Positions 11,553-63,831 of a stretch of 64,000 bases of DNA are shown piece after piece. Below the pieces are notes generated by a model. The model did not search any database and was not told the DNA's origin. It saw nothing but the letters and a program-made list of their open reading frames with translations. The DNA is from Solirubrobacteraceae bacterium. GTDB lineage: Bacteria; Actinomycetota; Thermoleophilia; Solirubrobacterales; Solirubrobacteraceae. The position numbers and the translations under genes were made by a program. The stretch lies in contig DATBZG010000080.1 of NCBI GenBank assembly GCA_036513335.1, positions 7,336 to 71,335 of the forward strand, read 5' to 3'. The first letter of the stretch is position 1. Every line of letters begins with the position of its first letter.

Positions 11553-11804
11553 GACGATCTCGGCCGCCCGGGTCGGAGACGTCCCGACGGATCTGGCGCC
11601 CCAAATCGATAGGCGATACGGGCCCGCCCGAACAGCGCCACTAGGACTATTTGCCTAGTAATAAAGCCAATATTACTTGGGTCATCAGTGCTTAGTGCTG
11701 AGCGCTGTCTAGCAATACACACCTCGACAAGGTTCCGATCGTGGGTTAGTCCTCCGGCGGCACGCACCGCCGTCAGACGACCCGTCCACCATAGGAAGAG
11801 ACCC

Positions 11805-15548: not shown

Positions 15549-16415
15549 ATGCCGACAAGAACAAAGCTCGAGAGGGTAACCACGGTCAAGGACGAGGAGC
15601 CGGCCTGGTCGATTCCAGGCCTGCGTGAGCCGCGCTACTCGCAGTCGCTGGAGCGGGGTCTTGCGATCCTTGCTTGCTTCACCCCCAAGCGCCCGGTGCT
15701 GGGCATCGCGGACATCGCCGACGAGCTCGGCATGAGCCGCTCGACCACGCACCGCTATGTGATCACGCTCGTTGCGCTCGGCTACCTGGAGCAGGGCGCC
15801 TCGCGCAAGTACCGCTTGGGCCTGCGCGTGACGGACCTCGGCATGTCGGCGCTGAACTCGACGGGCCTGCGCGAGCACGCGCGCCCTTATCTGGAGGAGC
15901 TGCGCCAGCGAACCTCCTACACCGCGAGCCTGGGCGTGCTCGACGGCACCGAAGTGCTCTACATCGACCGCATACGGAGCTTTAGACGCGAAGCGCGCAG
16001 CGCCGACCTGGACCTCCATGCCGGCTCGCGGCTGCCCGCCCACGCCACGGCGATGGGCAAGCTGCTGCTCGCGAACCTTCCGCAGACGGAGCAGCGCGAA
16101 CTGATCGGACAGATGAAGCTGACCAAACGCGGCCCCAACACGATCACGAGCAAGAAGGCGCTGCGCGAGGAGCTCGACGCGATCGTCAGTTCCGGCCTTG
16201 GCGTGGACGACCAAGAGCTCGCGTCGGGGGTCTACGCAATCTCGGCGCCGGTGCGCAACGAGGCACGCCAGGTCGTGGCCGCCGTCAACCTCGCAGCCCA
16301 GTCGACGATGATCTCGCTGGAGGAGTTCGTGGACGCGCTCAGCCCGCACCTGCTCTCCACCGCGGACCGCGTTTCCGCGCGTCTGGGCTACAGGCGCGAC
16401 GACGAGACGAACTGA
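15549..16415 (+). CDS. IclR-family transcriptional regulator
   Basis: SLERGLAILACFTPKRPVLGIADIADELGMSRSTTHRYVITLVALGYLEQ is followed by an IclR effector domain (GVDDQELASGVYAISAPV). Confidence 0.9.
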   Translation: MPTRTKLERVTTVKDEEPAWSIPGLREPRYSQSLERGLAILACFTPKRPVLGIADIADELGMSRSTTHRYVITLVALGYLEQGASRKYRLGLRVTDLGMSALNSTGLREHARPYLEELRQRTSYTASLGVLDGTEVLYIDRIRSFRREARSADLDLHAGSRLPAHATAMGKLLLANLPQTEQRELIGQMKLTKRGPNTITSKKALREELDAIVSSGLGVDDQELASGVYAISAPVRNEARQVVAAVNLAAQSTMISLEEFVDALSPHLLSTADRVSARLGYRRDDETN

Positions 16416-23169: not shown

Positions 23170-23266
23170 CTGCTGACGGATCCCAATGGACGCTGACAGC
23201 GTCCGAGCGTGCGTCCAGCGCTGCGTTCAATACTCAACCTCAATCGAGTTATTCCGATACGGACGA

Positions 23267-25645
23267 ATGTCCACAGTCGCGACCGCGGTCGGTTCTCGTG
23301 CGCCAATGCCCGGTGGTCGGCGCGTGGTTTGGGTCGTTTTCGGGTTGATCGGGCTTCTGCTGGCGGCCTATTGCGGGTTCCTGATCGACCAGCCCAACCA
23401 CCAATACTCGACCTGGCTTGACGGCTGGAGCGTCGACGCCGTCGAGCTGATCGCTGGAGGCCTGTGCGTCGCCCAGGGCTTCATGCGCACCCGCGGGCGC
23501 GCCGTGCCGCTGGTGCTGGGCGCCTCGCTGTTGGCGTGGGCGCTCGGCGACGTGGTGCTGACGATCGAGTCCTTCAATGGCGCCACGCCTGCGACCCCGT
23601 CGCTGGCCGACGCCTTCTACCTCACCTTCTTCCCGCTCGCGTATGTGGCAGTGGTGCTGTTCATGCGCGGAGAGGTTCGCCGCATCAACAGCCCCAGCTG
23701 GCTCGACAGCGCCGTTGCCGGGTTGGGTGCGGCGTCGGTATGCGCAGCTTTCGCGTTCAAAAGCGTCGTCTCGGCGACCGGCGGCAGCGGCCTGGAAGTC
23801 GCGACGAACCTCGCCTACCCGGTCGGTGACCTGCTGCTGCTGATCCTGGTCGTGGGAAGCACGGCGATGCTCTCCGGGCGCAAAAAGACGCCCTGGGTGT
23901 TGCTGGCTTCGGGTATGGCGCTGAACGTCGTCGGCGACACCTTCAACCTGCTGGGCTCCTCCTCGGGCGTCGCGCACGTGGGCGCGGTCGTGAACGGCGT
24001 CGCCTGGCCGGTCTCGATCCTGGTGATGTCGATGGCGATGTGGGTGCCGAGCGGCCATGCCAACCCCTTCTCGCTGCCCAAGCCCCCCGGCTTCCTGCTG
24101 CCGGGCCTCGCGGCACTGGCGGGACTGATCGTGCTTGTGGTGGGTGCGCTCGACCACGACCAGGCCAACAGCGTGTCGGTGGGTCTCGCGACGGCGACGC
24201 TGGCGGTGGTCGGCGTGCGCCTGGCGATGTCGGTGCGCAGCCTGCGCACGCTCACCCACCGCCACGAGCACCATTCGCTGACCGATTACCTGACGGGCCT
24301 GGGTAACCGGCGTTATCTGTTTCACATCCTGAACGCGTTCTTCGCGGAGGCCGAGAGCTCGACGGCACAGGGGCGCCTGGCGTTCCTGTTCATCGACCTG
24401 AACCGCTTCAAGGAGATCAACGACTCCTTCGGCCACGGCGCGGGGGACGAAGTCCTGCGCCACATGGGTGAGCGCCTGAGCGGCGCACTGCGCCCGAGCG
24501 ACGCGCTCGTGCGCCTCGGCGGCGACGAGTTCGCGGCGGTGCTGCTGGAGGCGGATGCGCAGACGGCGGAGGCGATCGCCGCCCGCCTGTCGCAGAGCCT
24601 GAAGGACCCGTTCGCCCTGGATACGGTGAGCGTGAAGGTCGATGCGAGCATCGGCATCGCGCTGGCGCCGGAGCACGCGACCGGCACCCGGGCGCTTGTC
24701 TCGTGCGCTGATCTGGCGATGTACAAGGCCAAGTCCAGCGGCGCGCCGTTCGCCATGTATGAGGAGTCCCTCGCCGACGGCGGCGACCTGCTGCGCCTGG
24801 CAGAGGAGCTGAGCGAGGCGCTGGAGCAGGGCAATCTGCGCCTGCACTACCAGCCGCAGCTGAACCTGCGTACGGGCGAGGCGCTGGCCAGCGAGGTGCT
24901 GATTCGCTGGGAACACCCGACGCTCGGGTCGATCCCGCCGCTTAAGTTCCTGCCGCTGGCAGAGCAGGCGGGGCTGATGGGCAGCCTCACGAACTGGGTG
25001 CTGGAAGAGGCGCTTGCGCAGTGCGCCAAGTGGCGTACGGAGGGCAGCCAGCAGGCGGTGTCTGTGAACGTGTCACCGTCGAACCTGCTGGAACCGGGCT
25101 TCACAGAGATGGTCAAAGACCAGCTGGCGCTGAACTCCCTGCCGGCGGCGGCGCTCGTGCTGGAGATCACCGAGACGAGCATCATCACGGATTTCGAGCG
25201 CGCGAAGGTGGTGATCGACGAGCTCTCGGAGTTCGGCGTGGTCGTCTCGGTGGATGACTTCGGCACGGGCTTCACCTCGCTTGCCTACCTGAGCAGCCTG
25301 GCTGTGCGCGAGCTGAAGCTGGACCAGACGTTCACCACTCACGTGGCGCACCGCGACAAGCAGCTGGTGCGCTCCACAATCGAGCTGGGGCACGCGCTCG
25401 GGCTTCGCGTGGTGGCAGAGGGCGTCGAGGACGCGGAGACGCTGGCGCTCTTGACAGAGCTCGGCTGCGACGTCGGCCAGGGCTTCTTCATCGGCGTTCC
25501 CGAGCCCCCGCTGGCGCCGCCGTCGAGCGATCTCGCGACCGCGACTCCGAATGTGAGAACCCCCGCGCCCGTGGATGAGCGCCTCGATCCCACGCGCTCG
25601 GTGGGGCTCCTCGCAACACCGCGTAAGCGCACGATCAAAGCCTGA
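23267..25645 (+). CDS. membrane sensor GGDEF-EAL protein, paralogue of the N-terminal three-quarters of 18302..21946
   Basis: RPSD I-site plus RLGGDEFAAVL. The EAL motif is present as EVL (24893-24901), followed by DDFGTGFTS. The membrane domain aligns by eye with that of 18302 (WLD..AGLG, LAYP.GDLLL). The start is ATG 23267; the ORF begins at 23186. Confidence 0.85.
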   Translation: MSTVATAVGSRAPMPGGRRVVWVVFGLIGLLLAAYCGFLIDQPNHQYSTWLDGWSVDAVELIAGGLCVAQGFMRTRGRAVPLVLGASLLAWALGDVVLTIESFNGATPATPSLADAFYLTFFPLAYVAVVLFMRGEVRRINSPSWLDSAVAGLGAASVCAAFAFKSVVSATGGSGLEVATNLAYPVGDLLLLILVVGSTAMLSGRKKTPWVLLASGMALNVVGDTFNLLGSSSGVAHVGAVVNGVAWPVSILVMSMAMWVPSGHANPFSLPKPPGFLLPGLAALAGLIVLVVGALDHDQANSVSVGLATATLAVVGVRLAMSVRSLRTLTHRHEHHSLTDYLTGLGNRRYLFHILNAFFAEAESSTAQGRLAFLFIDLNRFKEINDSFGHGAGDEVLRHMGERLSGALRPSDALVRLGGDEFAAVLLEADAQTAEAIAARLSQSLKDPFALDTVSVKVDASIGIALAPEHATGTRALVSCADLAMYKAKSSGAPFAMYEESLADGGDLLRLAEELSEALEQGNLRLHYQPQLNLRTGEALASEVLIRWEHPTLGSIPPLKFLPLAEQAGLMGSLTNWVLEEALAQCAKWRTEGSQQAVSVNVSPSNLLEPGFTEMVKDQLALNSLPAAALVLEITETSIITDFERAKVVIDELSEFGVVVSVDDFGTGFTSLAYLSSLAVRELKLDQTFTTHVAHRDKQLVRSTIELGHALGLRVVAEGVEDAETLALLTELGCDVGQGFFIGVPEPPLAPPSSDLATATPNVRTPAPVDERLDPTRSVGLLATPRKRTIKA

Positions 25646-41184: not shown

Positions 41185-42345
41185 CTAGGCAATCACCACC
41201 GACTCGAGGCTCTTCGAATACACGTTCGTGACCAGCACAGTCCGATCGTCCGGCAGCGCCACAACCTCGCGCGGCCACGCGCCGGCCGGGATCGTTCCCA
41301 GCAGCGCGGAGGAGCGATGTCGAAGCGCCGCCTCGACATCGACGACCGCGAGCGTCTGGGGCTGATCGGCGCCGCCGTACCGGTTCGAGTTCGCCGCCAC
41401 CACACGCGAGCCACCGGCCAACACGGCAAGCCCGGTCGGCGCGATCCCCACGCCGACCACCGCCCGCAGCGCCCGCGCGCGACCTGCGACGAGGCGCTCG
41501 CGGTCGAACGCCAGTAGTGAGTTGCTGCCTCGAGCGGTCACCCAGACGAGCTCCGGATCGGACGCCGACACGGCCACGCGCACGGGAGTGTGCCCCGCCG
41601 GCAGGGACACGACCGCGACACGCTCCGGAGCTTCGACGAGGTCGGCGACGACGAGCACGGACAACACCCCCGGCTGGCGTCCGCGTCGGTCGCGCTGGCT
41701 TGTCACGAACAGATGCTGACCATCGGCGGAGCAGACGGCGCCGACCGGGCCCGGGGGCAGCGCGGTCTGACCGACCAGCGCAGCGCGCGGGCTGTCCGAG
41801 CCGAGCGAGCCACCGAAGTCGAAGACCGACAACGTGGCGCTGTCCTCGTCTGTGACAAACGCGAAGCGCCCCGCGGGCTCCAGCGCGATCTGCACCGAGC
41901 CGCGGGCGGGCGCAGAGACGACAGCGTGGAATGGCTCATCGGTAGCGGCCCTCAGCGCCTGCGCGTCGGCGACCAGGAGCCCTCCGGCGCCGTTGGCGAT
42001 CAGCACATGACGACCGGTGCGCTCGACAGCGATGCCCCGCGGGATCAGCTCGTCCCCAAGCCAAACCACGCCGTCCACGCGCCACGGGGACCCGGCGGAC
42101 AGCGAGACCAGTCCGCGGTGCCCGGCCCGCGGCATCGACACGAACGCACGCTCGCCGCCCGGCGAGACAGCGACCGAGAACGGCCACGCGGGAAGCTCCG
42201 TGAACTGCGGGGTGACTCCTGGGATCTCGGGTGCGCTGCGCGGACGGCGCCGTCCGCCGGGCGACAGTGGAGATCGGAGAGCGCGCACGGGCGTCTGGAA
42301 TGTACCGGTGTGTGGCCGCGCCACGGCCCATGCGAAGGCCTGCAT
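41185..42345 (-). CDS. beta-propeller repeat protein (YncE/lactonase-like, YVTN-type repeats)
   Basis: The C-terminal 386 codons of ORF 41185..43533 show a repeated pattern: GPVGAVCSADGQHLFVTSQ, HTPVRVAVSASDPELVWVTARGSNSLLAFD, GIAPTGLAVLAGGSRVVAANSN. The start (ATG 42345) is uncertain. Confidence 0.65.
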   Translation of the reverse strand: MQAFAWAVARPHTGTFQTPVRALRSPLSPGGRRRPRSAPEIPGVTPQFTELPAWPFSVAVSPGGERAFVSMPRAGHRGLVSLSAGSPWRVDGVVWLGDELIPRGIAVERTGRHVLIANGAGGLLVADAQALRAATDEPFHAVVSAPARGSVQIALEPAGRFAFVTDEDSATLSVFDFGGSLGSDSPRAALVGQTALPPGPVGAVCSADGQHLFVTSQRDRRGRQPGVLSVLVVADLVEAPERVAVVSLPAGHTPVRVAVSASDPELVWVTARGSNSLLAFDRERLVAGRARALRAVVGVGIAPTGLAVLAGGSRVVAANSNRYGGADQPQTLAVVDVEAALRHRSSALLGTIPAGAWPREVVALPDDRTVLVTNVYSKSLESVVIA

Positions 42346-42465
42346 TGGGCTTCTCGAACGCTTTACCAGCACACGATTGGCTGGTATAAGTTCCGGACGC
42401 CGTTCGGGATGGGCAGGATGCTCACCGCGGTGAAAAGGACAGCGACCGAGATCGGGGGGCGACGG

Positions 42466-42708
42466 ATGGCGACCACAGACCGCGTGCGCGACTTCATCAT
42501 GGATGAGCTTCGATGGCGAGGCAACCGCGCCGATCTCACCGACGACTACCCCCTGCTCGAGAACGGGGTGATCGACTCGCTGGGCCTGTTGCGGATCGTG
42601 GAGTTCCTGGAGTCGCAATGCGGCGCGGAGATCGACGATCGCGAACTGGTGCCGACGAACTTCGCCACGCTCGCCGCGATCGCGCGGCTCGCGGAACCCT
42701 CGCAGTAG
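42466..42708 (+). CDS. acyl/peptidyl carrier protein (DltC-like size)
   Basis: 80 aa with the phosphopantetheine attachment motif GVIDSLGLLRIVEFLE. ATG 42466 follows a G-rich SD-like run. Confidence 0.85.
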   Translation: MATTDRVRDFIMDELRWRGNRADLTDDYPLLENGVIDSLGLLRIVEFLESQCGAEIDDRELVPTNFATLAAIARLAEPSQ

Positions 42709-42711
42709 ACG

Positions 42712-43602
42712 ATGCGCGACGCCGGGGCGAACGTGGCCACGCGCATCGACGAGGAGCTCGGATTCGTCGAGGAGGCAGGCTTCTTTGAGGGAGGGCTGTT
42801 CGGGGTCTCCTACAAGCCGACAGCTCGCACGCACGGGGCGGTCGTGATCTGCCCGGCGATCCTGTCGGAGTACGACCACACCTACAGCATCGATGTATCG
42901 CTCGCGCGTGCGCTGGCCGCTCGCGGCATCGCCGTTCACCGACTTCACTACCGCGGCAGCGGCCACAGCGACGGGGAGCCCTCGGACATGACCTTCGAGA
43001 GGATGCTCGAGGACGCGCTGGCCGCGACCGTCCGATTCGCCGCGGAGGTCGGCGTCGAGCAGCCGCTGATCCTGGGGGTGCGCTTCGGGTCGCTCGTGGC
43101 GGCCGCCGTCGCAGCCGGCAGCGGCGGCTCGCCGCTCGTGCTCTGGGACCCGGCGCTGAGCGGACGCGCGTACTTCCGCGATGCATGGCGCGCCGACATG
43201 ATGTTCCAGATCAACGAGGGCGCGAAGCCGGCCACGCGCGACGCGTTCCCGGCGCTGCTCGAGCGCGACAACCAGGTCGACGTGCTGGGCTATCCGATCG
43301 GCAAGGCCCTGTACGACAGTGCTCTGGAGCGCAGCCTCGTGGACGAAGTCGGCGATCGTGCGCGGAGGATCCTGATCCTCCGCGGTGGCCCGCCGGCGTC
43401 TGCCCGGCCAAAGCTCGACGAGGCCGTCGAGGAGCTTCGCGGCCGGGGCTGCAAGGTCGACGTGGAGGTACTCGACGACGCGTTGATCCTGTGGTTCCAG
43501 GGACCTGAAATGCGCCGCAACGCGAGACCGCACGTCGCTGAGCTGATCGCGCGCACGGTCGACTGGATCAAGCGCGAGTTGGTGAAGGACGCCGTCGCAT
43601 GA
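42712..43602 (+). CDS. alpha/beta-hydrolase-fold protein with Arg at the nucleophile-elbow position
   Basis: Starts 4 nt after the carrier-protein stop. GAVVICPAILSEYDH, HYRGSGHSDGE and the elbow LILGVRFGSLVAAAVA (G-V-R-F-G at 43075-43089). Confidence 0.8.
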   Translation: MRDAGANVATRIDEELGFVEEAGFFEGGLFGVSYKPTARTHGAVVICPAILSEYDHTYSIDVSLARALAARGIAVHRLHYRGSGHSDGEPSDMTFERMLEDALAATVRFAAEVGVEQPLILGVRFGSLVAAAVAAGSGGSPLVLWDPALSGRAYFRDAWRADMMFQINEGAKPATRDAFPALLERDNQVDVLGYPIGKALYDSALERSLVDEVGDRARRILILRGGPPASARPKLDEAVEELRGRGCKVDVEVLDDALILWFQGPEMRRNARPHVAELIARTVDWIKRELVKDAVA

Positions 43603-44525
43603 GCCGTCTCGCGACCACGCGTGAGGAGACGCCCTTCTTCGTCCACGCGGGCGGCGAGGACATCTTCGGCGTGCTCACCGCGCCCACGGTCGAGCCGAGA
43701 GGTATCGCCGCACTGGTCCTCACCGGCGGCGCCTTCGTGGGCGCCACTAACCGCAATCGCGTGTCCGTGCGGATCGCTCGCGACCTCGCGGCGATGGGCT
43801 TCCACGCTGTGCGGATGGACTACCACGGCGTCGGTGACAGCACCGGCGACATCGACACCTATCCGCTCGACCGCCCGTTCGTGGAGGACATCCTGCCCGC
43901 CGTGCAGGTGATGCAGGAGCGCGGCGTCGATCGCTGCGTGTTTGTCGGCACGACATGCTTCGGTGCGCGCACCGCGCTCTCGACGGCGGCCAAGGTCCCC
44001 AACGTAAGCGGCGTCGTGCTGCTGGCGGCGCCGATCCGCGACTACCCGAACTCGGTCAACCCAGACGCCACGCCTACACAGCACTACGTCAGGCGAGCGC
44101 TCTCTCCGCGGACGCTCGCGACCCTGCGCGATCCCGCTAAGCGGCGTCAGTACGCCACCACGGCGCGTTGGAAGGCCGGCTCGGCGGCCGGCAAGGTACG
44201 CAGCCGTCTGCTTCCTGGCGAGGCAGCGCCGGTCGCCGACGGGATGAGCTCCAGCTTCTACGAGCCGTTGGCCGAGCTCGCCGAGCGCAGGGTCCCGGTG
44301 CTGATCGGCTACGGCGTGGAAGACAGGTTCTACTCCGAGTTCCTCCAGGCGCGAGCGAAGCCGCGCCTCGGCCGCCTGCTCGACGCACCCGGGTCGCGGA
44401 TCGAGCTGCGCACGGTCGAGGGGAGCATCCACGCGCTCAGAAGGATCAGCGCCCAGGATGCGATGGTGGCGCTGACGACCGACTGGCTCGCGGAGATCCA
44501 CGAGGGCGTCTCGAGGGCAGCATGA
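43599..44525 (+). CDS. alpha/beta-hydrolase-fold protein with Cys at the nucleophile-elbow position
   Basis: ATGA overlap with the upstream gene. ALVLTGGAFVGATNR, DYHGVGDSTGD and the elbow VFVGTTCFGARTA (Cys codon at 43956-43958). Confidence 0.8.
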   Translation: MSRLATTREETPFFVHAGGEDIFGVLTAPTVEPRGIAALVLTGGAFVGATNRNRVSVRIARDLAAMGFHAVRMDYHGVGDSTGDIDTYPLDRPFVEDILPAVQVMQERGVDRCVFVGTTCFGARTALSTAAKVPNVSGVVLLAAPIRDYPNSVNPDATPTQHYVRRALSPRTLATLRDPAKRRQYATTARWKAGSAAGKVRSRLLPGEAAPVADGMSSSFYEPLAELAERRVPVLIGYGVEDRFYSEFLQARAKPRLGRLLDAPGSRIELRTVEGSIHALRRISAQDAMVALTTDWLAEIHEGVSRAA

Positions 44526-44529
44526 AGCC

Positions 44530-46110
44530 TTGCGATACCTAGTCAGTCACCTGCTCGAGGAGTCGGCGCGCAACACGCCGGACGCTCCGGCGGTACTCGA
44601 CGGCGAGCGCGAGATCACCTACGTCGAACTCGAGCGACAGTCCAACCGGCTCGCGAACCTGCTCGTCGAGCTCGGCGTCGAGCGCGGCGAGAGGGTCGGC
44701 ATCTACCTGGACAAGTCGATCGAGTCGGTGGTGGCGATCTACGGGACACTCAAGGCCGGCGGCGCATACGTGCCGCTGGATCCCCAGGCGCCGCCCGCGC
44801 GGCTCGGCTACATCGCCCGCGACGCGAGTGTGCGCGTGCTCCTCAGCGGATGCGAGAAGCAAGAGGCCTGGCAGGCGCTGATGGCGGACGGTCCTGCGCT
44901 GCAGTCGCTCGTGGCGCTCAACGGAGCGCCTGGCGCGGGGCCGGAGGGGGTGCGGACGCTCGCCTCCAGCGACGTTGCCGGCGCATCCGACTCCCCGCCT
45001 GCGGTGCGCGTCGTCGATTGCGACCTCGCCTACATCCTCTACACGTCGGGGTCGACCGGTACCCCCAAGGGCGTGATGCTCACGCATCGCAACTGCCTCG
45101 CGTTCGTGGAGTGGGCCGTCGAGCAGTTCGCCGTGTGCGCGGAGGATCGACTCTCGAGCCACGCCCCGCTGCACTTCGACCTCTCCACATTCGATCTGTT
45201 CGCGGCCGCGGCTGCGGGGGCAGCGGTGGTGCTGGTACCGGCGCAGGCGTCCGTCTTCCCCAGCGAGATCCGCCGGTTCATCGAGAGCACAGAGATCACG
45301 GTCTGGTACTCCGTCCCGTCGATCCTCGCGATGCTCGTGATCCGCGGGGGTCTGGAGATCGGCGCCCTACCCACTCTGCGCAAGGTCCTGTTCGCCGGCG
45401 AGGTGTTCCCCACGGGCTACCTGAAGCGTCTGGTCGAGCTCCTGCCCCACGTCAGCTTCGCCAACCTATACGGCCCGACGGAGACCAACGTCTGCACCTG
45501 GTGGGAGGTGGGCGAGCTTCCTGAGGATTCCAGCGAGACGATCCCGATCGGCCGCGCGATCGCCAACGTAGACACGTTCGTCGTCACCGACGACGGCCGG
45601 GCCGCCGAAGCGGGCGAGGTCGGCGAGCTGTACGTCCGCGGCCCCACCGTCATGCAGGGCTACCTCGGCGATCCTGAGAAGACCGCCTCGAGACTGGTCG
45701 CGAACCCGTTCGGCGATGTCCTCGATCAGCGCGTCTACCGCACCGGGGATCTCGTCCAGGAGACGGTGCGCGGCGACTACCGCTTCCTCGGCCGACGCGA
45801 TAACCAGGTTAAGAGCCGCGGCTACCGGATCGAGCTGGGCGACGTGGAGGCGGCGATCCAGGCTCATCCGGCTGTCACGGAGTGCGCGGTGGTCGCGGTC
45901 CCGGACGACCTCGTGGGCAACCGCCTGTACGCGTTCGTGGCCGCCGGCGAGGAGACGCTCGACCCCCCTCTAGGCGCGTTCTGCGCCGAGCGAGTTCCCG
46001 GCTACATGATCCCGGAGCGCTTCGAGGTCAGCGATGCGCTGCCGCGGACCTCCACTGGCAAGATCGACCGCCCGGCATTGGCTGCCCGACTGAGCGCCAC
46101 TCAAGCCTGA
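44530..46110 (+). CDS. stand-alone amino-acid adenylation enzyme (ANL superfamily, DltA/NRPS A-domain-like)
   Basis: A-domain cores: LAYILYTSGSTGTPKGVMLTHRN, FDLSTFDLF, NLYGPTETN, YRTGDLV, GRRDNQVKSRGYRIELGDVE and PRTSTGKIDR. The start is TTG 44530, 4 nt after the upstream stop. Confidence 0.9.
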   Translation: MRYLVSHLLEESARNTPDAPAVLDGEREITYVELERQSNRLANLLVELGVERGERVGIYLDKSIESVVAIYGTLKAGGAYVPLDPQAPPARLGYIARDASVRVLLSGCEKQEAWQALMADGPALQSLVALNGAPGAGPEGVRTLASSDVAGASDSPPAVRVVDCDLAYILYTSGSTGTPKGVMLTHRNCLAFVEWAVEQFAVCAEDRLSSHAPLHFDLSTFDLFAAAAAGAAVVLVPAQASVFPSEIRRFIESTEITVWYSVPSILAMLVIRGGLEIGALPTLRKVLFAGEVFPTGYLKRLVELLPHVSFANLYGPTETNVCTWWEVGELPEDSSETIPIGRAIANVDTFVVTDDGRAAEAGEVGELYVRGPTVMQGYLGDPEKTASRLVANPFGDVLDQRVYRTGDLVQETVRGDYRFLGRRDNQVKSRGYRIELGDVEAAIQAHPAVTECAVVAVPDDLVGNRLYAFVAAGEETLDPPLGAFCAERVPGYMIPERFEVSDALPRTSTGKIDRPALAARLSATQA

Positions 46111-46160: not shown

Positions 46161-46204
46161 GCAACCGATGGTTGCGCCTGGTAGCATTCGCAACCATGGG
46201 TTGC
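46161..46204. promoter_or_regulatory. two 15-bp palindromes GCAACC-N3-GGTTGC, candidate ArsR-family operators
   Basis: GCAACCGATGGTTGC (46161-46175) and GCAACCATGGGTTGC (46190-46204), 29 bp centre to centre. They sit immediately upstream of the SRPBCC-ArsR-DUF899 operon. Confidence 0.5.
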
Positions 46205-46225
46205 ACATCGACGAAAGGGACGCGC

Positions 46226-46708
46226 GTGGCCGCTGACAGAATCGAGCGAGAGATCGTGATCCAGGCGCCGGCGGAGGTCGTATGGGGCGTGATCACCGAG
46301 CCGAGCCAGATCAGCCGCTGGTTCAGCGACGAGGCCGAGGTGCAGGCGCGCGCCGGCGCGGACGGAACGCTTACGTGGAAGCCGGGAGGGCGCGGCGGTG
46401 ACAGGGAGGCGGACATGACCGTGGCGATCCGGGTCGTGGAGTCCGAGCCCTACAGCCGCTTCTCCTTCCGCTGGAACCACCCGGAGGGCACCACACCGGA
46501 TGAGAGCAACTCGGCGCTGGTCGAGTTCAGCCTCGCTGAGGAGGCGCGCGGCACCAGACTGCGGGTCGCCGAGAGCGCGATCGCCGCCGTCACGCACGAC
46601 GAGGACAGCATGGCTGCCTACCGCGAAAGCCATGAACACGGCTGGGGCAAGCATCTCGGGGAACTACTCGACTACGTCGCATCCGAGATACCGAGCGAGG
46701 CGCTTTGA
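46226..46708 (+). CDS. SRPBCC-superfamily protein (AHSA1/START-like)
   Basis: IEREIVIQAPAEVVWGVITEPSQISRWF is the typical N-terminus. The start is set at GTG 46226, after AAAGGGA. The ORF opens at 46172, inside the palindromes. Confidence 0.8.
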   Translation: MAADRIEREIVIQAPAEVVWGVITEPSQISRWFSDEAEVQARAGADGTLTWKPGGRGGDREADMTVAIRVVESEPYSRFSFRWNHPEGTTPDESNSALVEFSLAEEARGTRLRVAESAIAAVTHDEDSMAAYRESHEHGWGKHLGELLDYVASEIPSEAL

Positions 46709-47058
46709 AGGCCGGCGCGCTCGCCGAGGAGGACGCGCTGTGGGCGGCGGTTGCCGACCCGACGCGCCGGCGCGTGCTGGACGCGCTGCTCGAGCGAGGC
46801 GAGGCGACCACCACGACGCTCGCCGAGGAATTGCCGGTCACCCGGCAGGCCGTGGCCAAGCACCTCGTCGTGCTCGACCGCGTCGGCCTGGTGACCAGCG
46901 AACGGCACGGCCGCGAAGTCCGCTACGCCGTGCGCCCCGAACGGCTCGATGCCGCCAGCGAGGCGATGGCGCGCGTGGCGGCGCAGTGGGACAGGCGCCT
47001 GGCTCGGATCAAGCAGCTCGCCGAGTCAGTGCAGGCACAGACCGAGCTCCATTCCTAA
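46705..47058 (+). CDS. ArsR/SmtB-family transcriptional regulator
   Basis: VADPTRRRVLDALLERGEATTTTLAEELPVTRQAVAKHLVVLDRVGLV. The TTG start overlaps the upstream stop (TTGA). Confidence 0.85.
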   Translation: MKAGALAEEDALWAAVADPTRRRVLDALLERGEATTTTLAEELPVTRQAVAKHLVVLDRVGLVTSERHGREVRYAVRPERLDAASEAMARVAAQWDRRLARIKQLAESVQAQTELHS

Positions 47059-47078
47059 TGCCCAAGAAGGAGGCAACA

Positions 47079-47837
47079 ATGATTCACCACAAGACAGGCT
47101 CGCGCGAGGAGTGGCTGAAGGCGCGGCTCGAGCTGCTCGATGTCGAGAAGGACCTCACGCGCCGTAGCGACGAGGTGGCGCGCCTGCGGCGCGAGCTGCC
47201 GTGGGTTCCGATCGAGAAGGAGTACGTCTTCGAGACGGACGAGGGCCCGGCATCCCTTACGGATCTCTTTCGGGGACGCTCGCAGCTGCTCGTCTACCAC
47301 TTCATGTTCGGGCCGGATTTCACGGCGGGCTGCCCGTCTTGCTCGTCGATCGCCGACGGCTTCTCCGGCTCGGTGGTGCACCTCGCCAATCACGACGTCG
47401 CGTTCACCGCCATCTCGCGCGCACCGCTCGGCAAGCTTCAGGCATACAAGCAACGGATGGGCTGGAGCTTTCCCTGGGCCTCCTCATCGCCGAGCGACTT
47501 CAACCACGACTTTCACGTCACACACACCGACGAGGAATGGCAGTCGGGGGCCGTCGAGTACAACTTCTCCACCTCCGACTACCGGCCCGCGGAGAAGAGT
47601 CCGACGCTGATCGAGATCGCGGCGGGCGCTGGAACGGACCCGATGACGTACAGACAGGAGGGGCCGGGCATGAGCGCGTTCGCGCTGATTGACGGCGTCG
47701 TGTTCCACACATACTCGGCCTACGCACGAGGAGTCGACGGGCTCTGGGGGATGTACGCCTGGCTCGACCGCGCGCCGCTGGGTCGCAACGAGACCGGCGC
47801 CTGGTGGCGACGCCACGACGAATACGAGGAGGATTGA
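47079..47837 (+). CDS. DUF899-family thioredoxin-like protein
   Basis: AAGGAGG lies upstream of ATG 47079. EEWLKARLELLDVEKDLTRRSDEVARLRRELPWV, LLVYHFMFGPDFTAGCPSCS and VFHTYSAY are DUF899 hallmarks. Confidence 0.85.
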   Translation: MIHHKTGSREEWLKARLELLDVEKDLTRRSDEVARLRRELPWVPIEKEYVFETDEGPASLTDLFRGRSQLLVYHFMFGPDFTAGCPSCSSIADGFSGSVVHLANHDVAFTAISRAPLGKLQAYKQRMGWSFPWASSSPSDFNHDFHVTHTDEEWQSGAVEYNFSTSDYRPAEKSPTLIEIAAGAGTDPMTYRQEGPGMSAFALIDGVVFHTYSAYARGVDGLWGMYAWLDRAPLGRNETGAWWRRHDEYEED

Positions 47838-59830: not shown

Positions 59831-62800
59831 TCAGGGACCGACGTAGCTGAAGCGCGCCTGCGAAGCCGCATCCCCGGTGCCGGTGAAGTAGCTCTCCCAG
59901 GTGGTGACGGTCACGGGGACGCTCTTGCCGGGCTTGCCGCGCGGAGAGACCGCGTGCAGCGCGGTGGTGGAGCCGCAGGCGAAAAGCGCGGGGATCACGG
60001 TTACGGACTTGGACGCTTTGCCGGCGAAGTGCACGGCCAGCGGACAGCCGAGGTTCTGCCCGCTGATCTTCACGGTCGTGCCCCCCGCGGCGGGGCCGCT
60101 GCTGGGAGACAGCGAGTCGACGGCAGGCTGGCCGGGCGGGTACAGGTAGATCTGATCGGAGGCAGAGGTGACACTGCACCCGGTGACGGTGCACGCCCGC
60201 ACGTGGACGAGACCGGGGTTCTCAGAGACGGTCTCGGTGCTCAGGCGCGTTTCGCCTTCCGGCGCGAGCGTGTACTGGGTGCCCTGCGAGAGTTCTTCGG
60301 GTTCTTCGATGAACTGCACGCGCGTCAGCTGCCCCGCGAATCCGTCTCCCTGCAGCAAGATCGGCGTGCCGCCCGTGTCAGCGGCGCCGCTGCGGCCTTT
60401 CAGGCGCACACCGCTGGCGGTGCTTTCCACGCCGGTGACGGTCGGCAGGCCCGCATACTCGACGCTCGACTCGGGCGAGGAGCCGGCGAGGGTGCGCACG
60501 GACAGGGGGATGCTCTCGGGACCGGCGGTGGGGGTTTCTTCTTCGCCCACCAGCGCGGGGGCTTCGATCTGGATCTCCGTGCCGGTGATGTAGGACGGGG
60601 TCTGCCAGTACGGCGCCGGGCCCCCTTCAAGCGAGGCTTCTTCGGTCGGATTGCCGAAGTCGGTGTAGAGGAAGCTGAAGCGGTCCAGGCCGACGCCGTG
60701 GATCGTGACGAGCGTCCCGCCCGTCTCGCTGGCGAGGCTGCTCGGCCCGGCTGAGGTGGAGACGGAGGTGATCTTCGGCGCTGGCGCGTAGTCGTACTCG
60801 CTCGGGGCGGGATACACCTCGCAGCCGCATTCGGGCGGGGTCTGGAGCGCCCCGTTTTGCGCGAAGCTCGCGCTCCCCTGGACCGGCGGCAGGATCGTCG
60901 AGGGGGCGCTCTCCCCGGCCGCGCCGTGCACGACGACCTGCACCTGGCAGATGTCGTTGCCGGCGTTCTCACCCGAGTAGACGCCAGTGTCGGGCAGCGG
61001 CGTGCAGACGGTCTTCTTGGCCGAGTACGCGGGCGGCGTGACGAGGATCTGCGAGTCGCTGAGGACTTGAAAGCTTGCGGCCTTCACGCCTCCGAAGCTG
61101 ACGCTGCTCGCGCCGTCGAAGTCCGAGCCGAGGATCGTCACGGGGGCAGGAGCGGTCTCACTGCCGCCGGTCGGCACGAGCCCGGTGACGCCCGGTACGG
61201 GCGTCGAGCCGACGGCGTCGACGTACTGGAACCGCCCGTCGGGCCCGACCGCGCTGGACTGCCCGTCCTGGAGGCTGATGATGATGTTGGCTGGCCCGGC
61301 GCCGTTTTGCGGCGCGGGCGAGTTCGCCGGCAGCGTGTCGCTGGCGGGCGGCATGGTGAGCGTCAGCGAGCCTGCTCCGGTGACGTCGATCGAGCTGGCG
61401 GGCACCTGCCATGTCCCCACGAGCACCCCGGCCACGTCGGGCTTGCCCGCGCTCTCGAAGCCCGCGCCGCTCACCTTTACCGTCTCTCCTCCGGCGGTGC
61501 TGCCAAAGCTCGGCGAGAGCGCCGTCACGGCTGGTCTGTTCGTGGGTGCGGCGAAGCTGCACAGGTAGTAGGCGAGGCCGGCCGCGCCTTCGGCGTCGGT
61601 CATGCGCGGCGAGCCGAGCCCCGAGGCGAGGTCGAACCCGGCACGCGCGGGGAACACCTTGCCGTTGTCGAGGCCGTACTGGTCGTTGTTGCCTTCGGTG
61701 ATGTCGTTGAACGAGGCGGCGTAGTCGGCGGGGCTGGACGCGATCGCGTAGAGCAGCGGCGTCACGAAGCCGACGCCCGCGGCGGTGGCCGGGTTCGAGC
61801 GGCACGTGGGCGAGGCGTCTGCGAGCGCGAGCATGCCTGCCCAGATGGGTGTCGCTGAGGAGGTTCCGCCGGAGGTGATCCAGCCGCTGGGAGACGCTTC
61901 TTCGCCTTCGCCGACGTACTCTTCGCTGTAGACGGTGACGGCGCCTGTGTACTCGTCCGCCTGCGCGGAGACGTCGGGGTCAAGGCGACAGGGCGTGCTC
62001 GCGCTGGCGCCGGGGAGGGCTTCGTCGCAGAAGCCGGTCGGGTAGCCGAAGCTCCGCTCGACGCTGGCCGCGTTTTCGTAGTCGGCGCTCCCGGGTCGGT
62101 CGATTCCGGGGACGCTCGAGGCGCGCTGCCAGCTGGGCATGGCGAACGCGAGCGAGATCCCACCGCCGCCCGCTCCGCCTTCGTCGCCGTCGTTCCAGAC
62201 GTGCTCTTGCGCGGGCTGGCTCGCGTCGGTGATCGTCGTGCCGCCGACGGCCAGCACGTAGGGCTGGCTCGCGATTTCGCCGCCGGAGAGCGGGTTCTGG
62301 TCGTGCTTGATGATCGTTTCCCGGTGCACTTCTTCGCAGTTGTCACTGCCGCTGTCTCCGGCCGCTCCGAGGAATGTCTGGCCCTGCGCGGCGCCCTGTT
62401 GGAAGAGGAAGTTGAGCGCCTCCTGCGTGCCCGGCTGGCCTTCCTCCTCCTCTTCCTCGCACGGCTGCCCGTAGCTGGAGGTGACGATCTGGTCGCGGTC
62501 TTCGTCGACCATGGCGGCGATCTCAGAGACTTCTCCGGCGGGCGATTCCGGGTTCTCGTAGACGTCGATTTCAGCGCCGGGAGCCATCGCGGATACGTCC
62601 TCGACGTCCAGCAGCGCCTCGCCGTCCAGACCCGGGCCTTCCGCGATGCCGCCTTCGAGGGAGATGACGTGCAGTCGTTCCATCATCCCGGCCGCTCCCG
62701 CGGCGCCGAAGTAGCAGGTGTCGAACTGCTGCATGTCCGAACGTGAGAATGATTCCTCCTCGAACACGCCAATGTGCACCCCGGCGCCGGTGTCGCCGAC

Positions 62801-63628
62801 GCCGTAGAGCCCGAACGCGCCGTAGGCGTAGGCGATCTGATCGTCGGTGAGACCGCCAAGCTGCGTGGCGGCGGCGCGCGCCTTGGTGCACGCGTCGGGC
62901 GAGCCCGCCGGGTGCTTGAAGGCGGCGGACTTGGCCGCGGGGAACTCGCTGGCGAGCGCGGCGCGTCGGTGCACCCGCAGCGGCTGTGTCTGCTGGAGAT
63001 CGTCGAGCCCCTCGACCGCGACCACCGAGTCGGCGAGCGTTGCGGGCAGCGCCGGGGCGCTGGTGCTCGCGTGCACTACACGGCCGCTGCGTAGTCGGTA
63101 GCGGTGCAGCGTCGTGGCGAACGCCGCCGACACGTGCTCAGTGGTCCCGGAGAAGCCGAGGAGCAGATCGTTCCCGGTGGCAGGGTTGACCTGCAGGCCG
63201 TCGGCGCGCAGCCGCGAGCTCACGGCTTCGACGGTCGCCTGTTCGGGCCCGAAGCGCGCGGCGAACTGACCTTTCTGCAGGTAGTGCCCGAACTCGGGCG
63301 AGCCCTTGGTGGTGGCGCCGGCTATGAAGCTTTCGAGCGCCTGCTCGTTGCGGGGGCGCAACACGACCGTCCCGCTCACGCTGGCGCCGGCGGGCGCCGT
63401 GCCGAGGTCGACCGCGCCGCCGGGGATGCTCGGCGCGGCGCCGATCCGCACGAGGCCGCCCTGTCCGCTGGCCGCGCCCGCGCCGGTCACGGCCGCCGCC
63501 ACCAGCGCGAGCAGCGCCGTCAGGCTCAGCGCAATCCGACGGTGTCGCGCGACGCGCCCTCGCCCATGGCGGAAGATCGCGGCGAGTCCTTCGCCATTCG
63601 TGCTGTCGCGGCGCTCTGCTTCATCCAT
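59831..63628 (-). CDS. secreted sedolisin (S53) peptidase with pro-kumamolisin activation domain and at least 5 C-terminal IPT/TIG Ig-like repeats
   Basis: GGAGG lies upstream of ATG 63628. Signal anchor ALSLTALLALVAAAVTGAGAASG. Propeptide (RPRNEQALESFIAGATTKGSPEFGHYL). Catalytic Ser motif SGGTSSATPIWAGMLALA. IPT-like units begin PAVTALSPSFGSTAGGETVKVSG, GVTGLVPTGG, PKITSVSTS, PTVTGVES and PAVDSLSPSSGPAAGGTTVKISG. Confidence 0.85.
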   Translation of the reverse strand: MDEAERRDSTNGEGLAAIFRHGRGRVARHRRIALSLTALLALVAAAVTGAGAASGQGGLVRIGAAPSIPGGAVDLGTAPAGASVSGTVVLRPRNEQALESFIAGATTKGSPEFGHYLQKGQFAARFGPEQATVEAVSSRLRADGLQVNPATGNDLLLGFSGTTEHVSAAFATTLHRYRLRSGRVVHASTSAPALPATLADSVVAVEGLDDLQQTQPLRVHRRAALASEFPAAKSAAFKHPAGSPDACTKARAAATQLGGLTDDQIAYAYGAFGLYGVGDTGAGVHIGVFEEESFSRSDMQQFDTCYFGAAGAAGMMERLHVISLEGGIAEGPGLDGEALLDVEDVSAMAPGAEIDVYENPESPAGEVSEIAAMVDEDRDQIVTSSYGQPCEEEEEEGQPGTQEALNFLFQQGAAQGQTFLGAAGDSGSDNCEEVHRETIIKHDQNPLSGGEIASQPYVLAVGGTTITDASQPAQEHVWNDGDEGGAGGGGISLAFAMPSWQRASSVPGIDRPGSADYENAASVERSFGYPTGFCDEALPGASASTPCRLDPDVSAQADEYTGAVTVYSEEYVGEGEEASPSGWITSGGTSSATPIWAGMLALADASPTCRSNPATAAGVGFVTPLLYAIASSPADYAASFNDITEGNNDQYGLDNGKVFPARAGFDLASGLGSPRMTDAEGAAGLAYYLCSFAAPTNRPAVTALSPSFGSTAGGETVKVSGAGFESAGKPDVAGVLVGTWQVPASSIDVTGAGSLTLTMPPASDTLPANSPAPQNGAGPANIIISLQDGQSSAVGPDGRFQYVDAVGSTPVPGVTGLVPTGGSETAPAPVTILGSDFDGASSVSFGGVKAASFQVLSDSQILVTPPAYSAKKTVCTPLPDTGVYSGENAGNDICQVQVVVHGAAGESAPSTILPPVQGSASFAQNGALQTPPECGCEVYPAPSEYDYAPAPKITSVSTSAGPSSLASETGGTLVTIHGVGLDRFSFLYTDFGNPTEEASLEGGPAPYWQTPSYITGTEIQIEAPALVGEEETPTAGPESIPLSVRTLAGSSPESSVEYAGLPTVTGVESTASGVRLKGRSGAADTGGTPILLQGDGFAGQLTRVQFIEEPEELSQGTQYTLAPEGETRLSTETVSENPGLVHVRACTVTGCSVTSASDQIYLYPPGQPAVDSLSPSSGPAAGGTTVKISGQNLGCPLAVHFAGKASKSVTVIPALFACGSTTALHAVSPRGKPGKSVPVTVTTWESYFTGTGDAASQARFSYVGP

Positions 63629-63831
63629 GACCTTGGCCTCCAGCGATGTCTGCCCTGCAGCCGCTTCGCGGTGCAGCGAACGATAGACGTGTGCGTTCCT
63701 TGCTGCAGTGTCACGCGGCTCGGGCCGTTCTTCGCGGAGCTTCATCGGCGATTATTGACGAGTGCCAATAGAAGGCGATAGAGACGGACGTGGCTCTCTC
63801 CTACGGCGAGCTTCGTTTACAGGGCGCCACA

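Follow-up and report, generated by a model that had tools for sequence, protein, structure and literature searches.

What is the task of an amino acid-activating enzyme and a carrier protein that are packed together with two alpha/beta-fold proteins, in a stretch of DNA without any NRPS, PKS, exosortase or Dlt genes? The stretch in question, referred to here as the window, is the whole 64-kb segment that was analysed, and its host is a soil actinobacterium of the Solirubrobacteraceae. Four packed genes lie on its + strand at 42466-46110 and form, with a divergent neighbor, a five-gene block with the following features:

41185-42288, - strand: prop, 367 aa, divergent, with a GTG start at 42288; a cytoplasmic beta-propeller of the YVTN/YncE type.
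42355-42465, + strand: promoter and 5′ leader of the operon, with TTTACC-N17-TATAAG and an inverted repeat, ACCAGC-N9-GCTGGT.
42466-42708, + strand: carrier gene, 80 aa, with the phosphopantetheine Ser in an IDSLGLL motif (DSLG).
42712-43602, + strand: abhA, an alpha/beta-fold protein of 296 aa lacking the canonical triad.
43599-44525, + strand: abhB, an alpha/beta-fold enzyme of 308 aa with a Cys120-Asp242-His278 triad.
44530-46110, + strand: adenylation (A) enzyme gene, 526 aa, TTG start; stand-alone, NRPS-type and PltF-like.

The spacings read off the sequence are, in operon order, +3 nt, a 4-nt ATGA overlap of the abhA stop and abhB start, and +4 nt. The open reading frames and spacings were re-read, and the four genes, with the sizes, coordinates and spacings that an earlier sequence-only reading had reported, are as described there, as are the A-domain core motifs that it quoted, including FDLS, NLYGPTE and PRTSTGKIDR, all present in the translation of the A enzyme. 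A GC3 scan gives values of 0.85-0.88 for abhA, abhB and the A enzyme in a window of 68% GC, and these are therefore real coding frames; the 80-aa carrier gene is shorter than the ORF length cutoff of the scan. The arrangement is not a chance one, since several independent metagenome-assembled genomes contain the same block, with identities of 35-89%. The reported absence of condensation, thioesterase, MBOAT/DltB, DltD and PKS/NRPS functions is also upheld over the 64 kb: Pfam searches of about 44 GC3-supported ORFs across the entire window found no Condensation, Thioesterase, PKS, MBOAT, DltD or exosortase domains, and tblastn with queries from related loci (NRPS modules, a stand-alone C domain, a prolyl-carrier dehydrogenase and a sulfotransferase) gave no window match except the A gene itself. 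Neither an exosortase (XrtA/EpsH) nor PEP-CTERM proteins are encoded in these 64 kb.

The A enzyme is the most readily interpreted component. It matches AMP-binding (309 bits), passes the amino-acid adenylation domain model TIGR01733 (404.2 bits, cut-off 317.4), and has core motifs A3-A10 with Asp235 and Lys517 at the ends of the specificity code. Its best single-domain PDB match is PltF (6o6e; 351 bits, with 125 bits in the pocket region), and a residue-by-residue alignment to this structure gives the ten-residue code DLFYLALVCK, compared with DLLYLALVC in PltF. The positions follow GrsA numbering, based on the PheA sequence. All nine positions that can be compared match except 239, which is F rather than L as in PltF, and F is also found there in 7thn, a second solved prolyl ligase. 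The code thus describes a proline-type, PltF-like pocket, and because of this resemblance L-proline is the predicted substrate, although the enzyme may instead take a proline analogue, for example pipecolate or methylproline. The related loci L001, L010, L003 and L004 share this code without change. The carrier itself passes the PP-binding model (PF00550, 22.4 bits, cut-off 20.8) and has weak NCBIfam matches to stand-alone biosynthetic ACPs; it is 98.8% identical to its L001 counterpart, with a dN/dS of 0.05, and a carrier adjoining abhA is conserved in L003, L004 and L005. The cassette orthologues of L004 and L005 have acyl-CoA-dehydrogenase genes as neighbors, with scores of 455-479 bits against PigA and of 441 bits against the prolyl-PCP dehydrogenase RedW, and L017 holds a copy of the L004 gene at 83% identity. 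No prolyl-carrier dehydrogenase of the PltE/RedW/PigA type was found in the window by tblastn.

The two alpha/beta-fold proteins both match Hydrolase_4, and appear to have different roles. The best NCBIfam model for abhB is TIGR03100 (hydrolase 1; 57.8 bits, cut-off 168.45), and it has a complete triad of C120, D242 and H278 with an elbow of T-T-C-F-G-A-R. Among its relatives the Cys is kept in 24 of 25 and the His in 21 of 25, the acid is conserved, and an AF2 model (pLDDT 83.7) places the triad residues at canonical topological positions; abhB is thus predicted to be the catalytic acyl-transfer subunit. The best model for abhA is TIGR03101 (hydrolase 2, exosortase A-associated; 73.3 bits, cut-off 202.75), which is matched by all of its 140 closest representatives, though with a best E-value of only 7e-30. 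Its nucleophile elbow has Arg124 (G-V-R-F-G), located between strand 119-123 and helix 126-136 of an AF2 model with a pLDDT of 90.8, and Arg is present in 136 of the 140 relatives. It is therefore probably a non-catalytic or substrate-binding partner of abhB, but Cys47, at the oxyanion-loop position and kept in 135 of the 140, may give abhA a chemistry of its own rather than leave it inert. Foldseek searches with either protein retrieve generic esterases (TM 0.5-0.66), and with abhA nothing else, so the fold is silent on transfer as opposed to hydrolysis. We found no biochemical data in the literature for any member of the abhA/abhB family or for TIGR03100/03101.

The two genes are always adjacent, and since natural fusions occur in other organisms, and in both orders, we infer from these and the gene overlap that the products form a heterodimer or complex. 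In the window, in L001, L003, L004, L005, L010 and L017, and in the exosortase-type locus L021, the pair is found together with an ACP and an adenylating enzyme, whereas L007/L011 have the pair but neither the ACP nor the Pro A enzyme; the pair therefore does not strictly need this carrier.

Upstream of the operon, prop matches beta-propeller families and 1l0q weakly and has a dN/dS of 0.16-0.18; an alternative ATG start is present at 42345. It is found beside the cassette in L001, L009 and L010 (81-86%), L007/L011 (51%) and L003/L012 (45%), and also in L018, a related NRPS cluster from which the cassette is absent. The segment between prop and the operon (42355-42465) is nearly invariant among the window, L001 and L010, while synonymous sites in the genes differ (dS 0.1-0.6). 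It has no Rfam match and no significant fold (z -1.05), and the promoter was not flagged by a simple promoter scan.

The settings of the relatives suggest where the block came from. The sequence-only reading had named membership in a larger NRPS cluster just outside the window as grounds for its own refutation, and this applies by half: no NRPS adjoins the window operon, but L010, 81-86% identical, has the exact block, including the beta-propeller gene, inside a five-unit NRPS cluster. Collinearity of the window and L010 at the DNA level spans exactly 41188-46091 and ends at the edges of the five-gene block. In L010 and L003 the cassette is flanked by a stand-alone C domain on one side and by C-A-T modules on the other; L018 is a cluster of the same type. 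The NRPS-embedded arrangement is likely to be ancestral, because it is present in three deeper-branching relatives (L010, L003/L012 and L007/L011), and with the exact block lying inside such a cluster in L010, the window copy is a stand-alone derivative from a natural-product cluster and not from an envelope pathway. More distant members, L005, L014 and L017, are in glycan loci, which also encode flippases, initiating glycosyl-phosphate transferases and ABC-2 exporters. Codon comparisons indicate that the window cassette is under purifying selection, with dN/dS values for the five-gene block of 0.05-0.21 overall and of 0.05-0.19 against L001 (dS 0.1-0.46), which is also without an NRPS. A block kept by selection should have a function of its own, or work with partners encoded elsewhere.

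We see about an even chance that the locus is a type II (stand-alone) NRPS-style cassette, in which the carrier is charged with proline and the resulting prolyl-S-carrier is taken over by a Cys-dependent acyl-transfer heterodimer. The A enzyme would activate L-proline with ATP and load it as a thioester onto the phosphopantetheine of the 80-aa carrier, a step that is strongly suggested. Cys120 of abhB, complexed with abhA, would then attack the carrier thioester to give a prolyl-S-enzyme intermediate, and abhA, whose nucleophile is replaced by a conserved Arg, probably for this reason holds the carrier, its phosphopantetheine, or the acceptor. Finally, the prolyl group would pass to a nucleophile, which could be the thiol of another carrier or else a hydroxyl or amine group on a peptide, a glycan or a small molecule. 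The cassette would be a portable module: in close relatives it would supply a five-unit NRPS with its starter or a side unit, in distant ones it would operate in glycan loci with a prolyl-carrier dehydrogenase that would yield pyrrole-2-carboxyl-S-carrier, and in the window genome only the cassette and its beta-propeller neighbor would be left. A point against this reading is that the window has no dehydrogenase, condensation domain or obvious acceptor gene.

An unlikely but credible alternative is that the cassette is a trans-acting loading module for an NRPS elsewhere in the genome, with a stand-alone C domain or module at a distant site drawing on the prolyl-S-carrier, and abhA/abhB acting as a shuttle or an editing type II thioesterase. 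This is precisely how the block is used in L010, the closest relative containing an NRPS, and in L003; the stand-alone C domains of these two clusters are 70% identical, and the cluster type is common in the Solirubrobacteraceae (at least 120 C-domain protein clusters at 62% identity or more). The 42 kb upstream and the 18 kb downstream, however, contain no NRPS, and, as indirect evidence, the complete 3.85-Mb chromosome of the syntenic L001/L009 carries none of the 120 best C-domain clusters (identity at least 62%). It is highly improbable that the block is simply the remnant of a decaying NRPS cluster with no present function. The likely ancestry within NRPS clusters and the abrupt end of L010 homology at the block edges would fit decay, yet all five genes are intact, the four longer ones have a GC3 of 0.85-0.88, the low dN/dS between the window and L001 was found with neither having an NRPS, and the promoter and leader have changed less than synonymous sites have.

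The sequence-only reading had itself proposed an exosortase-independent, Dlt-analogous aminoacylation of the envelope or exopolysaccharide, with proline esterified onto a surface polymer. A cell-envelope link is just one possibility among several, and we rate this proposal as quite unlikely: the window block is not flanked by genes for glycans, membrane transferases or export, the nearest relatives are in NRPS rather than envelope loci, and inspection of the translations of the five proteins found neither a signal peptide nor a membrane segment, the thioester chemistry being cytoplasmic. In its favor are the sister relationship of the hydrolase pair to that associated with exosortase A and EPS, and the distant cassette members in glycan loci. 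Still more doubtful is a self-contained synthase of a small product, in which the Cys enzyme might join at least two prolyl thioesters into a product such as cyclo(Pro-Pro) or oligoproline, purely by analogy with the way PHA synthases polymerise their thioester monomers. Class III/IV PHA synthases are formally alike, with a Cys-His-Asp alpha/beta fold and a second subunit, which here would be the non-catalytic one, and the block does persist without acceptor-making genes; but the PDB matches show no sequence or fold similarity to PhaC, and in other loci the pair belongs to pathways whose external acceptors are obvious.

Returning to the prolyl-transfer cassette, its relationship to known systems is clearest for the exosortase A cassette (TIGR03098/03099/03100/03101 plus an ACP), whose "same four parts" the window had been suggested to contain. 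Kinship is borne out to the extent that TIGR03101 and TIGR03100 are the best matches of abhA and abhB and that the ligase also matches TIGR03098, but this last score is likewise below its cut-off (337.8 bits, cut-off 592.35), and since all three scores are so far below the curated cut-offs, abhA, abhB and the ligase are, on profile evidence, members of an unnamed sister family, related but distant. Identity of the parts is not sustained, the ligase being a PltF-like NRPS A domain and not of the TIGR03098 type. The PLP decarboxylase included in that cassette is also missing: there is no TIGR03099-type enzyme beside the operon, and the only two fold-type PLP enzymes in the window, a PALP protein (11688-13154) and an aminotransferase fusion (18302-21946), are both more than 20 kb away. 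L021, a genuine exosortase-A-type cassette, scores 245 bits for hydrolase 2 (TIGR03101), 342.7 for hydrolase 1 (TIGR03100) and 784 for the ligase (TIGR03098). It shares with the window the order of carrier, hydrolase-2-like and hydrolase-1-like genes, which overlap, together with an adenylate-forming enzyme, an Arg elbow of the G-x-R-x-G type in hydrolase 2 (GMRTG, and GVRFG in the window) and a Cys-His-Asp triad in hydrolase 1, where the Cys of L021 and of P0123 is in the same column as that of abhB and the His and Asp align. The ligase of L021 differs in its pocket and scores below the TIGR01733 cut-off (259 vs 317), while that of the window is of the NRPS A-domain kind and has a proline code; the window differs further in its Actinomycetota host, and in that its nearest relatives are in an NRPS setting and not in an EPS/exosortase locus. 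The four-gene unit is compact, maintained by selection, and a distant, simpler cousin of the uncharacterised exosortase-adjacent gene set.

In the DltA/DltC system, too, the A enzyme is stand-alone, has an A4 motif of the FDLS type and is combined with a small carrier, and DltA is among the better matches of the A enzyme (295 bits; PDB 3fcc/3dhv). Identity with DltA was rejected, with 295 and 290 bits against cut-offs of 476 and 559.85 and no MBOAT or DltD domain in the window; the pocket is proline-like rather than D-Ala-like, and DltB (MBOAT), DltD and DltX are absent from the window. CmaE, SyrC, and CouN7/CloN7 with CloN2 are similar by logic only, as free-standing enzymes that take an aminoacyl or pyrrolyl group off a carrier thioester and hand it on. 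CmaE and SyrC work through a Cys in the active site, and two proteins of this kind, CloN7 with CloN2, are required for clorobiocin. We know of no counterpart in these systems of an abhA-type partner, with Arg at the nucleophile site, or of the abhA-abhB fusions. As precedents for the proposed transfer, CmaE and SyrC shuttle aminoacyl groups from carrier to carrier, and CouN7 delivers carrier-bound pyrrolyl-2-carboxyl to a sugar (PMC8748450).

The type II NRPS prolyl-loading systems PltF/PltL/PltE, RedM/RedO/RedW, PigI/PigG/PigA and CloN4/CloN5/CloN3 pair a stand-alone A enzyme with a stand-alone carrier, as does the window. To our knowledge, none of these pathways has a Cys/Arg hydrolase pair of the abhA/abhB family. 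The window differs in that its carrier is not a recognised member of a PltL-type family and in having no dehydrogenase, such that the prolyl group would remain unoxidised. Nonetheless, its A enzyme is closest to PltF among solved structures, with a nearly identical code, and distant members of the cassette (L004, L005 and L017) are accompanied by a PigA/RedW-like dehydrogenase.

The cassette at 42466-46110 comprises four plus-strand genes and, with the beta-propeller gene (prop) that diverges from it, makes up a five-gene block. At about 68% GC, the window yields raw ORF lists full of spurious frames, and filtering by third-position GC left a single coherent plus-strand gene series. The sequence-only reading had listed a carrier, two alpha/beta-fold proteins and an adenylation enzyme, all of which are confirmed by Pfam and NCBIfam, and its junctions (an ATGA overlap between gaps of 3 nt and 4 nt) are also correct.

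41185-42288, minus strand: prop, cytoplasmic YVTN/YncE-like beta-propeller protein without a Pfam match
42466-42708, plus strand: carrier, PP-binding domain with the DSLG serine (Pfam/NCBIfam)
42712-43602, plus strand: abhA, Hydrolase_4-type alpha/beta-fold protein (Pfam/NCBIfam)
43599-44525, plus strand: abhB, Hydrolase_4-type alpha/beta-fold protein (Pfam/NCBIfam)
44530-46110, plus strand: A enzyme with a TTG start, AMP-binding; NRPS amino-acid adenylation model TIGR01733 at 404 bits (curated cut-off 317)

The neighbors of the cassette are housekeeping, transport and regulatory genes unrelated to it, with an amino-acid permease, MFS transporters, a methyltransferase and an HxlR regulator upstream, and AHSA1/SRPBCC, ArsR, DUF899 and EamA transporter genes downstream. 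The AHSA1/SRPBCC-ArsR-DUF899 trio lies directly 3′ of the cassette (46172-47837, plus strand), and is taken to be unrelated because it is kept in the syntenic complete chromosome (L001, also L009) but missing from a second related locus, L010. A Pfam scan of about 44 further ORFs spanning the 64-kb window found no exosortase, MBOAT or DltD, and tblastn with queries from related loci found no NRPS modules, stand-alone C domain, prolyl-carrier dehydrogenase or sulfotransferase in it; the earlier statement that the window lacks NRPS, MBOAT and DltD genes thus holds. NRPS pseudogene relics were sought on both flanks of the five-gene block and none were found. Elsewhere in the window, a phosphoesterase-family protein with a C-terminal collagen triple-helix repeat (259-2406, plus strand) and a 1,304-aa pro-kumamolisin/subtilase with TIG domains (59831-63745, minus strand) are probably secreted. 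Four c-di-GMP turnover proteins (GGDEF/EAL/HD-GYP types) are present in the window within a stretch of 18 kb, and one of them, at 1,214 aa, has an unusual architecture in which GGDEF-EAL is fused to a class I/II aminotransferase domain:

7390-9204, minus strand: c-di-GMP turnover protein
16388-18004, minus strand: c-di-GMP turnover protein
18302-21946, plus strand: c-di-GMP turnover protein
23186-25645, plus strand: c-di-GMP turnover protein

The substrate of the A enzyme is confidently predictable as proline. Among single domains in the PDB it matches PltF best, at 351 bits for the whole length and 125 bits for the pocket region; PltF is the stand-alone L-proline ligase from the pyoluteorin pathway. 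LgrA, with its glycine prediction, appeared closer at 480 bits, but this is a sum over two A domains and the single-domain score is only 246 bits, so glycine was rejected. Specificity positions were read by aligning the enzyme to 6o6e and, separately, with MAFFT, in a reconstructed GrsA-PheA numbering that reproduces the known code DAWTIAAICK. The code prediction proposed with the sequence-only reading gives DLFYLALVCK, and hence proline; the PltF code is DLLYLALVC, and 7thn, another prolyl ligase of solved structure, likewise has Phe at position 239. The A enzyme orthologues of four related loci (L001, L010, L003 and L004) have exactly the window's code. Independent support for proline comes from an acyl-CoA-dehydrogenase-type gene located inside or beside three distant versions of the cassette (L004, L005 and L017), the best families for the L004 and L005 copies being PigA (455-479 bits) and the L-prolyl-PCP dehydrogenase RedW (441 bits), with the L017 gene 83% identical to that of L004. 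By this gene content these three versions should make pyrrole-2-carboxyl-S-carrier, and the prolyl group would stay unoxidized in the window, L001, L010 and L003 since they have no dehydrogenase gene. Lasso-peptide-like genes (PqqD, Transglut_core3, Asn_synthase and NTP_transf_5) adjoin dehydrogenase-containing cassettes in loci of glycan type (L017 13133-16909; L005 16183-17590).

The two alpha/beta-fold proteins are paralogues that match each other at about 30% identity in their N-terminal halves. Of 25 aligned relatives of abhB, 24 retain Cys120 and 21 retain His278, and an acidic residue at 242 is conserved; the AlphaFold model (pLDDT 83.7) places Cys120 between strand 112-118 and helix 119-132, and the acid and His after the final two strands, matching the topology of a canonical triad. 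The residue at the same elbow in abhA is position 124 (model pLDDT 90.8), an Arg in 136 of 140 relatives, and there is no conserved His or Asp after the late strands. We do not adopt outright the view that abhA is a simple dead enzyme: Cys47 (window about 42850), at the oxyanion-loop position, is kept in 135 of the 140 relatives, and Arg59, Arg77 and Arg160 are likewise nearly invariant. Because of the retained Cys47, abhA may have a chemistry of its own. When the AF2 models were compared with the PDB, all matches were to feruloyl esterases, lipases and dehalogenases of a generic kind, which gave no functional lead, and the abhA and abhB profiles found only generic Hydrolase_4 relatives among PDB sequences.

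There is good evidence, in gene arrangement, that abhA and abhB act as a complex: they are strictly adjacent, they overlap by ATGA in the window, and single-chain fusions occur in both orders. Ten such natural fusions are present among the top 150 profile matches, eight in A-B and two in B-A order (P0126, P0129, P0130, P0147, P0187, P0188, P0190, P0254, P0261 and P0262). The fusions come from diverse and low-GC organisms, and in locus L014 the fusion comes after genes for a Wzx-type flippase and a polysaccharide deacetylase. A word-indexed search had made the family seem very rare (42 clusters), which was overturned by an exhaustive profile search yielding 2,765 family representatives at E<=1e-30. 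All 140 of the closest representatives score well short of the cut-off of TIGR03101 (exosortase-A hydrolase 2), and abhA and abhB are therefore regarded as an unnamed sister family.

The close clade is narrowly distributed. A genome scan using the closer alignment (A3) found a close abhA relative in only five of 185,579 species genomes, all of uncultured Actinomycetota (Solirubrobacteraceae, Solirubrobacterales and Acidimicrobiaceae), which indicates a Solirubrobacteraceae-like source for the window. The complete 3.85-Mb chromosome is 86% identical to the window in DNA and collinear from the beta-propeller gene through DUF899, and L010 is 82% identical and collinear only over 41188-46091, exactly prop and the four cassette genes. 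In L010 the five-gene block is flanked by NRPS genes (a stand-alone C domain and two C-A-T modules, then C-A-T and C-A-T-TE), and in L003 (also L012) a stand-alone C domain 70% identical to that of L010 directly follows the cassette, with modules and three sulfotransferases beyond. L018 is a cluster of the same type without the cassette, retaining the propeller, sulfotransferases and stand-alone C domain, and L019 has an FkbH/ACP starter system ahead of the same C domain. This NRPS family, with a stand-alone C domain, four to five C-A-T modules and sulfotransferases, is very common in Solirubrobacteraceae metagenomes (at least 120 C-domain protein clusters at 62% identity or more), and we know of no product for it. 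Its starter cassettes are Pro A/ACP, FkbH/ACP or none, and these arrangements point to the cassette acting as one of several interchangeable suppliers of starter units. On parsimony, the NRPS-embedded state would be ancestral in the clade, with the lineage of the window and L001 having kept only the five-gene block.

Other settings vary. The hydrolase pair and propeller are kept in L007 (also L011) without the carrier and Pro A enzyme, an LVIVD-repeat protein being in their place; L005, L014 and L017 are glycan loci, L015 and L016 lie near S-layer-homology proteins, and L021 is an exosortase-type EPS locus. Sulfotransferases recur beside the hydrolase pair and its NRPS clusters (L003 4913-8115, L007 6897-10004, L016 14101-14691, L018 and L019), and P0127 is a sulfotransferase-abhA fusion; this recurrence suggests sulfated products or a functional link to the pair. 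Every close relative has the propeller gene beside the cassette in divergent orientation, as seen in L001, L003, L007 and L010, and the gene is also present in the cassette-free cluster L018. The propeller is the sole candidate partner within the block. The 110 nt located 5′ of the carrier gene (42355-42465) are nearly invariant across the window, L001 and L010, whereas synonymous sites of the block genes differ by dS 0.1-0.6. This segment contains TTTACC-N17-TATAAG and the inverted repeat ACCAGC-N9-GCTGGT, and is possibly a promoter plus an operator or leader. A riboswitch or leader RNA was considered and rejected, with no Rfam match and no significant fold, and a promoter and terminator scan gave nothing useful.

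What might the pair do? In the mechanism we find best supported, the A enzyme would form prolyl-AMP and then charge the carrier, a step that is strongly inferred. The prolyl group would next be taken as a thioester by Cys120 of abhB, in complex with abhA; a plausible task for Arg124 and the other conserved arginines of abhA is to hold the phosphate of phosphopantetheine or an acceptor that is anionic. The acyl group would finally be handed to an acceptor, these later steps being inferred. Transfer is favored over hydrolysis because hydrolyzing prolyl-S-carrier would be a futile ATP cycle. Free-standing transferases such as CmaE, SyrC and CouN7 are known (PMC8748450). A nucleophilic Cys is well suited to moving an acyl group from a thioester to another thioester or to an ester. 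The proposed abhA/abhB transferase would have CmaE, SyrC and CouN7 as functional analogues.

Several alternatives compete with this model. The cassette could be an in-trans loading module serving a distant NRPS, much as its relatives sit beside NRPS genes, but none of the 120 best partner C-domain clusters (at least 62% identity) is on the 3,853,943-bp L001 chromosome, which is indirect evidence against the cassette simply serving the same NRPS in trans, and we think this unlikely. Prolylation of the envelope or EPS, as put forward in the sequence-only reading, is distinctly unlikely, and a self-contained condensing or polymerizing enzyme making a proline di- or oligopeptide is quite improbable. 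That the stand-alone block is a functionless relic is very improbable indeed. Both the window and L001 lack the NRPS, so all of the divergence between them (dS 0.1-0.46) accrued without it, and over this divergence dN/dS is 0.05 for the carrier, 0.10 for abhB, 0.16 for the propeller and 0.19 for both the A enzyme and abhA. These low ratios and the near-invariant upstream 110 nt indicate a block maintained by selection and not a decaying relic.

The reading that we tentatively put forward, as a possibility still open to considerable doubt, is that abhA and abhB represent a widespread, uncharacterized two-subunit transferase, in which a catalytic alpha/beta-fold subunit with Cys-His-Asp and an Arg-elbow paralogue move carrier-bound aminoacyl or heteroaroyl groups to peptides and glycans, with thousands of members including the hydrolase 1/hydrolase 2 pair of the exosortase A system, and that the proline version in the window is the simplest setting for elucidating the chemistry. 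If so, it would offer a first way into the function of the exosortase-A accessory cassette. A carrier-to-acceptor acyltransferase would be a new class of tailoring or loading enzyme for natural-product and polysaccharide biosynthesis, and would suggest that uncultured Actinomycetota have glycans decorated with prolyl or pyrrolyl groups; if all that the copy in the window does is feed an NRPS in trans, the finding is an ordinary one. The window version is the most tractable for in vitro reconstitution, because proline is predictable and there is no decarboxylase, oxidase or megasynthase. Each part belongs to a kind already known, one being a prolyl-loading pair of the type II NRPS sort and the other a hydrolase pair that is named but uncharacterized, and we found no description in the literature of the two in combination or of the Cys/Arg heterodimer signature. 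The cassette is thus a simple, testable entry into an old unknown, and not a startling one.

To our knowledge, the role of the exosortase-A accessory cassette has gone unexplained since the first description of that system in the mid-2000s; its hydrolase pair has a long-standing family name for which we found no assigned reaction. Literature searches found no characterizing paper for TIGR03100/03101 or for the sister family in the window, and nothing relevant under exosortase cassette, TIGR03100 or the specificity-code strings. Homology to this cassette had been guessed from the sequence, and the kinship stands while the membership does not: the best NCBIfam matches are TIGR03101 for abhA (73 bits, cut-off 203) and TIGR03100 (hydrolase 1) for abhB (58 bits, cut-off 168), both below the cut-offs. 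The A enzyme likewise falls short of the TIGR03098 ligase cut-off (338 bits against 592), so the parts are not the same as those of that cassette. L021 served as a genuine cassette for comparison, with hydrolase 2 (245 bits), hydrolase 1 (343), PLP decarboxylase (591) and ligase (784) all above the cut-offs. The L021 ligase, unlike the window A enzyme, scores below the NRPS A-domain cut-off, and the pockets of the two enzymes differ; L021 also includes the PLP decarboxylase missing from the window. The order carrier, hydrolase 2, hydrolase 1 is the same in both, with overlapping genes; the hydrolase-2 type has an elbow Arg at the nucleophile site (GMRTG in L021, GVRFG in abhA), and the hydrolase-1 type has a Cys (LCDAA in L021, TTCFGA in abhB) with aligned Asp and His. 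The active-site pattern of the pair, Cys in one protein and Arg in the other, is fixed; the pair is part of a far larger family that has no name, and whether the setting is NRPS, glycan or stand-alone, it recurs in company with a carrier and an adenylating enzyme. The common gene order and active-site pattern argue that the window and the exosortase-A cassette share a homologous two-protein core.
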